Virus record (IMG/VR): IMGVR_UViG_2778261250_000006
Source: a virus
Taxonomy: Duplodnaviria > Heunggongvirae > Uroviricota > Caudoviricetes
Length of the DNA stretch: 6,502 nt
Strand: one strand, 5' to 3'
The notes below the pieces were generated by a model. That model was not told the origin of the DNA and ran no database searches. It saw only the letters and a list, made by a program, of their open reading frames with translations. Position numbers and translations under genes: made by a program. Position 1 is the first letter of the stretch, and every line of letters begins with the position of its first letter. Below, in pieces: positions 4,434-5,328 of this stretch.

Positions 4434-4613
4434 TTGCTATGGGTGGTTAATCATGCGTTAATGGTGTTCTGGTTTGTTACAAATTTATCTGAAGCAGTCA
4501 TTGTTATAATTTTATTATTTGTACCTCTTGAGATTTCCTTGTTGGTTTTTCTCTCTGATATTTTTTTTCGGACCATTCTGCCCAAGGGCTAATTTCTTCA
4601 AAAGGTAATAATT
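4434..4613 (+). promoter_or_regulatory. cspI promoter and 5' leader (-35 TTGCTA 4434-4439, -10 GTTAAT 4457-4462, cold-box-like GGTTTGTTACAAA about 4471-4485, GCCCAAGGGC hairpin 4581-4590)
   Basis: Same architecture and near-identical TGCGTTAATG -10 region as the cspB promoter at 1551-1560. Predicted leader is about 144 nt with an AT-rich upstream region. Confidence 0.5.
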
Positions 4614-4826
4614 ATGTCTAACAAAATGACTGGCTTAGTGAAATGGTTTAACCCTGAAAAAGGTTTTGGTTTCATCACGCCGAAAGATGGCAGCAAAGAT
4701 GTGTTTGTCCATTTCTCAGCAATTCAGAGCAACGATTTCAAAACATTAACTGAGAATCAGGAAGTTGAATTTGGTATTGAGAACGGACCTAAAGGTCCTG
4801 CCGCTGTTCATGTAGTGGCGCTTTGA
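4614..4826 (+). CDS. cspI: Cold-shock protein CspI-like (70 aa)
   Basis: [70 protein letters not shown]: cold-shock domain with both RNP motifs; AAAAGG ribosome-binding site upstream. Confidence 0.93.
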
Positions 4827-4857
4827 GGTAGACAATATTACAAACCATATTCACTTT

Positions 4858-5025
4858 AGATGCCCGTGTTGTCATGGTTCCCAGTATAGAACATCATCTT
4901 TTGATGTTTCTGACATGAATCCTTTCGGGGCAAAATGTATCTTTTGTAAATCAATGATGATTACATTTGATAATATTTCACAATACTTAAATGCCAGCCG
5001 TCTGTCGTTGGATTTAAAAAAGTGA
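4858..5025 (+). CDS. Ogr/Delta-like zinc-finger small protein; no canonical in-frame start upstream of the first CxxC (possible pseudogene or non-canonical initiation)
   Basis: Frame open from 4816 to TGA 5023-5025 encodes ...RCPCCHGSQYRTSSFDVSDMNPFGAKCIFCKSMMITFDNISQYL.... The CPxC, RTS, CxxC and ITF/QY pattern resembles the phage P2 Ogr zinc-finger activator as recalled. The only in-frame ATG is at 4915, inside the finger; ATG 4860 is out of frame. A terminator follows directly. Confidence 0.4.
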   Translation, partial: RCPCCHGSQYRTSSFDVSDMNPFGAKCIFCKSMMITFDNISQYLNASRLSLDLKK

Positions 5026-5028
5026 AAA

Positions 5029-5054
5029 TGAAGGCTCCTTCGGGAGCTTTTTTG
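5029..5054 (+). terminator. Intrinsic terminator after the cspI / zinc-finger unit
   Basis: GGCTCC-TTCG-GGAGCT hairpin (UUCG-type tetraloop) at about 5031-5049, followed by TTTTTTG. Confidence 0.7.
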
Positions 5055-5097
5055 CTTGGTGTCTATTCGATGGATACTCACATACTACGGTAACATC

Positions 5098-5328
5098 ATG
5101 AAAAAAATCATAGTTTTTTTTAACTCTGAACCAGCAGTGGTAGTGCCAGCGATGACTGGAGTTAACACCATCATGCGTGAATATCCAAATGGCGAAAAAA
5201 CACACCTTACTGTAATGGCCGCAGGGTTTCCATCTCTGACCGGAGATCATAAAGTCATTTATGTAGCCGCGGATCGACATGTTACTTCAGAAGAAATTCT
5301 GGAAGCAGCAATAAGGCTCTTGAGTTGA
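5098..5328 (+). CDS. Hypothetical small protein (76 aa from ATG 5098) upstream of the gnsB-like gene
   Basis: ORF MKKIIVFFNSEPAVVVPAMTGVNTIMREYPNGEKTHLTVMAAGFPSLTGDHKVIYVAADRHVTSEEILEAAIRLLS. The track ORF begins at an upstream TTG (5056); ATG 5098 is preferred. Ribosome-binding site is weak and no recognised motif was found. Confidence 0.45.
   Translation: MKKIIVFFNSEPAVVVPAMTGVNTIMREYPNGEKTHLTVMAAGFPSLTGDHKVIYVAADRHVTSEEILEAAIRLLS

Follow-up and report, generated by a model that had tools for sequence, protein, structure and literature searches.

Results

Genes and features of the cspI-ynfQ locus

The window, which is the whole 6,502-nt stretch of viral DNA that was analysed (IMG/VR record IMGVR_UViG_2778261250_000006), is DNA of the Qin cryptic prophage of E. 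coli K-12 in reverse-strand reading. The gene order is that of Qin: the putative Q antiterminator gene (ydfT), cspF, cspB, ynfU, essQ, ydfR, rrrQ and rzpQ are followed by cspI, ynfQ, ynfR, ynfN, gnsB and ydfO. The 561-nt segment at 4560–5120 is matched at 95–100% identity by 2146 E. coli records (2145 of 5426 complete genomes), and the best matches, K-12 strains among them, are 99.8% identical. The sole difference between this segment and K-12 MG1655 record NZ_CP032667.1 is at position 4634, where the cspI Gly7 codon is GGC in the window and GGT in the record, a synonymous change. Within the ynfQ ORF itself there is no difference from that record. The features of the region are collected in Table 1.

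Table 1. Features of the cspI-ynfQ region, in window positions
Feature	Position	Strand	Basis and remarks
cspA-type cold-shock thermoregulator (5' UTR and cspI)	4468–4853	+	Rfam RF01766, 110.9 bits (gathering 78), E = 1.7e-28
cspI, upstream cistron of the same mRNA	4614–4826	+	annotation; stop 10 nt before ynfQ start
Shine-Dalgarno GAGG	4825–4828	+	overlaps cspI stop TGA 4824–4826; 8-nt spacer to ATT 4837
Predicted ATT start codon (non-canonical)	4837–4839	+	first codon of annotated CDS; conserved
ynfQ (b4724) CDS, predicted YmcF-like small zinc-ribbon protein MTNHIHFRCPCCHGSQYRTS	4837–5025	+	RefSeq, PF23641, dN/dS
ynfR, annotated 21-aa ORF MKAPSGAFLLGVYSMDTHILR	5028–5093	+	annotation; crosses terminator hairpin
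Intrinsic-terminator-like hairpin and T-run	5030–5053	+	fold and pattern scan; 5 nt after ynfQ stop

A preliminary description of this DNA, made from the letters alone, had drawn attention to a zinc-finger ORF downstream of cspI with no usable start codon. The frame in question is open from 4816 to 5022 (69 sense codons), with TAG 4813–4815 before it and TGA 5023–5025 after it. A script bore out that there is no in-frame ATG, GTG or TTG from 4816 to the Cys9 codon at 4861, and the complete-looking CPCC...CIFC motif is indeed present in frame. The ORF list yields only a 36-aa piece of this frame, from ATG 4915. With a probability of about 0.88, the startless ORF is ynfQ (b4724), an already annotated gene of the E. 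coli Qin prophage. The figure is a joint one, which covers the identity of the gene, an AUU start at 4837 and a bicistronic cold-shock mRNA as the best explanation of the locus. When the RefSeq CDS was mapped to the window, its coordinates were consistent with three E. coli records and its length was 189 nt, i.e., 62 codons plus TGA. The RefSeq identifier is YP_009518790.1, or WP_071524604.1 in PGAP records, and the product is named either "cold-shock protein" or "cold shock small protein YmcF".

The segment cspI-ynfQ-ynfR-ynfN-gnsB is a cargo module that duplicates the chromosomal module cspG-ymcF-ymcE-gnsA. In the intact lambdoid phage Tritos the identical order, S-ydfR-endolysin-Rz-cspI-ynfQ-ynfN-gnsB, is found after the lysis cassette. 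Because of this post-lysis place in Tritos and the parallel with the chromosomal module, we regard the ynfQ module as phage cargo that lies outside late-gene regulation. The chromosomal paralog of ynfQ is ymcF (b4723), found 10 nt after cspG; its product is 65% identical to YnfQ over 62 aa, though the C-terminal 20 residues diverge. Like ynfQ, ymcF has an ATT start, a Shine-Dalgarno sequence (SD) overlapping the csp stop, a 10-nt gap, a terminator directly after its stop, and a GnsA/GnsB-family gene downstream. Unlike ymcF, ynfQ is Qin cargo placed after the lysis genes, and its downstream neighbours are ynfR and ynfN, where ymcF has ymcE.

Two neighbouring genes deserve mention. Annotation of the ynfN gene (5098–5328, + strand) is inconsistent: some PGAP records give it 76 aa, beginning at ATG 5098, one MG1655 record has it as "frameshifted", and NC_000913.3 gives it 51 aa; its product had no Pfam match. 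The ynfU gene (2306–2476, − strand), between cspB and essQ, specifies 56 aa from an internal ATG and matches Pfam YnfU (PF23499; E = 3.5e-31). YnfU is a second small CxxC...CxxC protein of the same prophage, with no detectable kinship to YnfQ (hhalign probability 1.5%).

The ynfQ start codon

Read directly from NC_000913.3, the first codon of the ynfQ CDS is ATT. This in-frame codon, 12 nt upstream of ATT 4849, was missed in the preliminary description. The start region was surveyed in 80 loci encoding relatives, one representative genome being used per species, and the homologous codon could be placed in 79. The codon homologous to 4837 was ATT in 54 of the 79 loci, ATC in 4 and ATG in 21; the 58 loci with ATT or ATC at the start position represent at least 10 genera. 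An ATT start is found for both ynfQ and ymcF in E. coli, and also in Citrobacter, Kosakonia, Yokenella, Scandinavium and others, and Salmonella has ATC. Orthologs that bear ATG have it at exactly the codon aligned to 4837, and many of the 79 loci, the window included, have no alternative in-frame start. Further, an AAGG, GAGG or AGGA(G) motif lies 11–12 nt upstream of the start in all 79 loci, and in a 13-genus alignment both the AGG core (4826–4828) and the "AT" of the start codon are invariant. From these comparisons of sequence, the predicted translation start of YnfQ is ATT 4837, a conserved non-standard codon.

The preliminary description had rightly raised ATT initiation as an option, but it sited the start at ATT 4849 (codon 5) or at ATG 4915 (codon 27), either of which would give a shorter protein. 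Both codons are in frame, and ATG 4915 is the sole canonical start of the frame; neither is conserved, however. ATT 4849 is placed 20 nt away from the SD; at its homologous codon ymcF has CTC, and ATC or ATA is found in other loci. At the position of the Met encoded by ATG 4915, homologs have K, R, E, G or S, and a start there would remove the invariant first CxxC knuckle. In the orthologs with ATG, that ATG is codon 1 and not the equivalent of 4849 or 4915. We therefore consider initiation elsewhere in the frame very unlikely, and return to ATT 4837 as the predicted start.

The ATT start accounts for two kinds of annotation error. The YmcF-like ORF was left unannotated in five of the nine phage records that carry the gene (e.g., PV340562.1, LR595862.1 and LR597641.1). 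Some database proteins of 70–71 aa, with upstream GTG, TTG or ATG starts, carry Ile at the true start position, and such N-terminal extensions of 8–9 residues (proteins P0008, P0010, P0011 and P0013) are gene-caller artefacts. Among the records, JAGZPX010000007.1 (a "Veillonella parvula" MAG, L006) and JAYRLR010000017.1 (a "Mucilaginibacter" MAG, L060) have ynfQ and ymcF loci with an initiation region identical to that of E. coli, and look like contaminant contigs in metagenome bins. As for published start-site work, the TetRP study took in NUG codons only, and the text of the Onc112 preprint makes no mention of the ynfQ locus.

The YnfQ protein

The ynfQ product matched the Pfam YmcF-like model (PF23641) over positions 1–62 of 62, scoring 111.8 bits where the cut-off is 27 (E = 1.7e-32), and a protein search gave 132 homologs from enterobacteria, under the name "cold shock small protein YmcF". 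YnfQ is thus, as judged from profile and homology searches, a member of the YmcF-like family to which RefSeq gives that name. Every invariant column of the family core, F-[RK]-C-P-x-C-x-G-S-Q-Y-R-x-S...N-P-x-G-A-x-C-I-F-C-K, is found in the window protein, and the segment HFRCPCCHGSQYRTSxFDVSEKNPFGAKCIFCKSxM is nearly invariant across Enterobacteriaceae. An exhaustive HMM search of 1.84 billion cluster representatives gave 42 hits, which, save for two spurious repeat proteins, were YmcF-family proteins or fragments. A match of YnfQ to NCBIfam ECs_2282_CxxC was weak (E = 0.0024) and below the cut-off.

The Cys spacing of YnfQ is C9-x2-C12-x21-C34-x2-C37. Distant family members keep C9, C12, C34 and C37 and lack C11 and H13. 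Because only these four Cys residues are kept, YnfQ is predicted to be a plain four-Cys zinc ribbon, with C9, C12, C34 and C37 as the predicted ligands, and a likeness to Rieske proteins was dismissed. That likeness lies in CPCCHGSQY (4861–4887, + strand), which resembles the Rieske box II sequence CPCHGSQY and gave weak cytochrome b6-f matches (E 0.06–0.2). A Rieske-like metal site was rejected as coincidence, given that C11 and H13 are missing in the distant members. The AlphaFold (AF2) model of YnfQ had a moderate pLDDT of 73.5, with values of 81–89 over residues 11–40. When PDB and BFVD were searched with the model by Foldseek, no match had an E below 0.4, and a PDB sequence profile search with YnfQ gave nothing significant. 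The top Foldseek neighbours, all non-significant, were generic zinc ribbons, i.e., eL43/L37ae, the TFIIE-alpha finger and rubredoxin-like knuckles, to which the likeness is at the level of fold class only. YnfQ was also modelled in a 2026 review, as a rubredoxin-like protein that has a metal site (PMC13348028). That a core of 35 residues hardly varies suggests that YnfQ has a single, specific macromolecular partner in the response to cold shock.

A more pointed proposal, made in the preliminary description, was that the zinc finger resembles the P2 Ogr late-gene activator in motif order, so that the ORF would be a second late-gene regulator of the prophage beside Q. P2 Ogr and P4 Delta (PF04606) share with YnfQ the make-up of a single small zinc ribbon of about 60–70 aa, in which an N-terminal F-x-C-P-x-C knuckle is followed by R-T-S. 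Between the YmcF profile and P2 Ogr, hhalign aligned F-x-C-P-x-C..H...R-T-S-x-[FY] and C...I-T-[FY]-[DE]; the probability was 52% (E = 1.5e-4) against a single Ogr sequence, and a weak 19.7% (E = 1.2e-3) against a 30-sequence Ogr family alignment. An Ogr-type activator did not follow from this weak profile likeness. Pfam Ogr_Delta gave no match to YnfQ at E ≤ 10, whereas P2 Ogr, the positive control, scored 76.9 bits (E = 1.1e-21); by tblastn, the control sequence had been confirmed through 100% identical matches in several phage and prophage records. YnfQ has CxxC as its second knuckle where Ogr has Cx4C, the overall spacings being Cx2C-x21-Cx2C and Cx2C-x22-Cx4C, respectively, and no Ogr protein was among the hits of the HMM search of 1.84 billion representatives. 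The genomic context differs too. The paralog ymcF and most homologs are outside prophages, behind csp genes, and ynfQ is set among the post-lysis cargo of a lambdoid phage rather than in a late region of P2 type. We rejected membership in Ogr/Delta following the Pfam scan, the Cys spacing, the two hhalign runs and the exhaustive HMM search. In sum, YnfQ shares a broad fold class with Ogr and is outside the Ogr/Delta family, nothing supports a second late-gene activator beside Q, and we hold that role to be very unlikely for a gene that belongs to the cspI-ynfQ-ynfR-ynfN-gnsB cargo module.

Selection on the ynfQ frame

Selection was analysed over codons 2–44 in 71 distinct sequences, with dN/dS taken against the window sequence where dS was unsaturated. 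First, second and third codon positions were variable at 19, 16 and 42 of 43 sites, respectively, and the median dN/dS was 0.055. The two alternative frames are closed, with stops in 62 and in all 71 of the 71 sequences. The ynfQ frame is under strong purifying selection.

This selection is the reason for rejecting the view that ynfQ is a decaying gene in which a small indel destroyed a former ATG start, so that ynfQ would still be transcribed but no longer translated. The window does lack a canonical in-frame start, the locus is in a cryptic prophage, and ATG 4860 is one base out of frame, just as the preliminary description had said. That ATG is no sign of a start-disabling indel, however; positions 4860–4862 are merely the junction of AGA (Arg8, 4858) and TGC (Cys9, 4861), and homologs that use CGC, CGT or AGG for Arg8 have no ATG there. 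Nor did alignment of related loci reveal an indel, as the ATG of orthologs is at the codon aligned to 4837. Decay is further contradicted by the conservation of ATT or ATC across genera (58 of 79 loci), by the dN/dS of about 0.05, by the intactness of all five Cys in the window, and by the presence of the region at 95–100% identity in more than 2100 E. coli genomes, with the ORF identical in the aligned K-12 MG1655 record. The suggestion that the ORF looks like a real transcribed gene agrees with its being the annotated, conserved ynfQ; that it might be decaying is most improbable.

The cspI-ynfQ transcript and its terminator

The genes cspI and ynfQ are laid out as a bicistron, and the 10 nt between them leave no room for a promoter. 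Published transcript levels of ynfQ co-vary with those of cspI and ynfN (PMC11228462; PMC11728337). This co-variation, the cold-shock rise of the neighbouring YnfR-SPA and the cspA thermoregulator in the leader are indirect signs that YnfQ protein may itself be cold-induced. The data on "YnfQ" of VanOrsdel 2018 (PMC6001520) are irrelevant to this gene, because the name there denotes a different 37-aa ORF between ydfJ and ydfK. At its 3' end the cspI thermoregulator match takes in the SD and the ATT of ynfQ, and refolding of the mRNA in the cold could thus also act on ynfQ initiation. A second Rfam match to the cspA thermoregulator was found at cspB (1566–1958, + strand; 158.8 bits).

As the preliminary description had stated, a terminator directly follows the ORF, and both folding and the pattern scan support it; the description of it as strong was overstated. 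The hairpin (stem 5030–5038/5043–5051, UUCG loop, T-run 5048–5053) is of moderate stability, with a dG of −12.5 kcal/mol and a z of −2.0. An equivalent GC hairpin and T-run is found after most ynfQ homologs. The ynfR ORF starts 3 nt after the ynfQ stop. YnfR-SPA protein is strongly increased after cold shock (PMC6001520), and since the cold-induced ynfR spans the hairpin, the terminator must be read through in the cold, possibly by Csp-mediated antitermination.

A CspI-YnfQ fusion, made by +1 frameshifting of ribosomes within the final three codons of cspI (overlap 4816–4823), is the least probable of the readings considered. The end of cspI does share these positions with the ynfQ frame, which is in the +1 frame and open from 4816, but there is no slippery motif, the open stretch upstream of the start varies without pattern from 12 to 285 nt among loci, csp-less orthologs encode an equal 62-aa protein from ATG, and the conserved SD, which is ideally spaced, speaks for initiation at a site of its own.

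Start codon and csp context

The placement of the cspI stop 10 nt upstream of ynfQ has a comparable csp layout in 46 of the 79 loci, so that this arrangement is common but not universal in the family. All 46 start with ATT (42) or ATC (4) and have an intact CspA-family gene that ends 9–10 nt before the start; wherever an upstream gene was detected at an ATT or ATC locus (46 of 46), it was such a csp. By contrast, an intact neighbouring csp is missing from all 21 ATG loci. In Klebsiella, Raoultella and Shimwellia, which have ATG, a decayed csp 3' remnant with in-frame stops is left. In Silvania, Leclercia and Enterobacter, also with ATG, the upstream sequence has diverged and the motif is a stronger one, AGGAG. 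C. sedlakii (ATG) has a 19-nt deletion that fused a degenerate csp to the ORF.

Some ATT loci have no intact csp. There are three in Atlantibacter, in which ATG is codon 2, and eight Pseudescherichia-like loci; at one further ATT locus (L075) no intact csp ORF was found and the csp 3' end is still recognisable. Seven of the eight Pseudescherichia-like loci (L020, L022, L023, L026, L028, L030 and L054; about 1481–1507) have an out-of-frame 8-codon mini-ORF, ATG AAA AAA GGA YAC TAT TAT TAC TAA, whose stop lies 4–6 nt past the ATT, and which may substitute as a coupling partner. Across the loci surveyed, the association of ATT with csp suggests that the weak start is tied to the csp cistron. The link is suggestive and no proof, because the association represents about 3–4 independent csp losses and the counts are inflated by relatedness of the loci.

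Discussion

The gene and its start are already known: ynfQ is annotated with an ATT start and belongs to the YmcF-like family. The association that points to coupling between ATT and csp, whereas the gene and its ATT start are known, may be a new by-product of the present analysis. The conserved ATT makes this real and annotated gene appear to lack a start, and it defeats many gene callers.

In the reading that we favour, ynfQ is the second cistron of the cold-shock cspI mRNA, and AUU 4837 is probably read as fMet, directed by the GAGG SD that overlaps the cspI stop. The weak AUU may have been kept because ynfQ rides on the extremely abundant csp mRNA. In one version, AUU would keep YnfQ at no more than a small fraction of the amount of CspI made; in the other, AUU would be served mainly by ribosomes that terminate at the csp stop and then re-initiate. 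Where the csp cistron was lost, the start would have become AUG, presumably since a stand-alone gene needs AUG. At clearly less than even odds for the whole, we tentatively suggest that the AUU of ynfQ and ymcF could be a functional device, through which YnfQ synthesis would hinge on csp termination, on temperature-sensitive proofreading by IF3, or on both. Synthesis of YnfQ might then be confined to the cold and kept low, in fixed proportion to Csp, and the repeated switch from AUU to AUG upon csp loss would be the evolutionary signature of the device.

Published work on AUU initiation bears on both sides of this suggestion. In reporters, AUU initiates at about 1–2% of the level of AUG (bioRxiv 10.1101/063800). 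AUU mRNAs are translated in vitro, and they compete poorly, worst at low temperature (PMC5499595). Proofreading by IF3 is reportedly weaker at low temperature (PMC5499595), and the ratio of IF3 to ribosomes rises in the cold (PMC6511846). Poor competition of AUU in the cold is hard to square with a cold-shock gene, unless it is offset by coupling or by laxer proofreading by IF3. Against coupling is the finding that Pseudescherichia keeps ATT without csp.

The E. coli genes with AUU starts to which ynfQ is comparable are infC, which encodes IF3, and pcnB, which encodes poly(A) polymerase; ynfQ shares with them a conserved AUU. A 2016 survey counted only these two as confirmed AUU cases (bioRxiv 10.1101/063800). 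The AUU of infC leads to IF3-dependent autoregulation, infC is cold-induced, and rare start triplets are also thought to keep expression low (PMC5499595; bioRxiv 10.1101/063800). Unlike infC and pcnB, ynfQ has an AUU that follows, at a distance of 10 nt, the stop of a cistron with very high expression, and its family has changed AUU to AUG in lineages without the upstream cistron. The ynfQ/ymcF pair roughly doubles the natural AUU-start gene set of E. coli beyond infC and pcnB. If the AUU is indeed a functional device, ynfQ and ymcF would be the third and fourth natural AUU-regulated genes of E. coli, with a mechanism unlike infC autoregulation. The AUU-csp association offers a testable example of start-codon choice that may be tuned to operon context in the cold-shock response.
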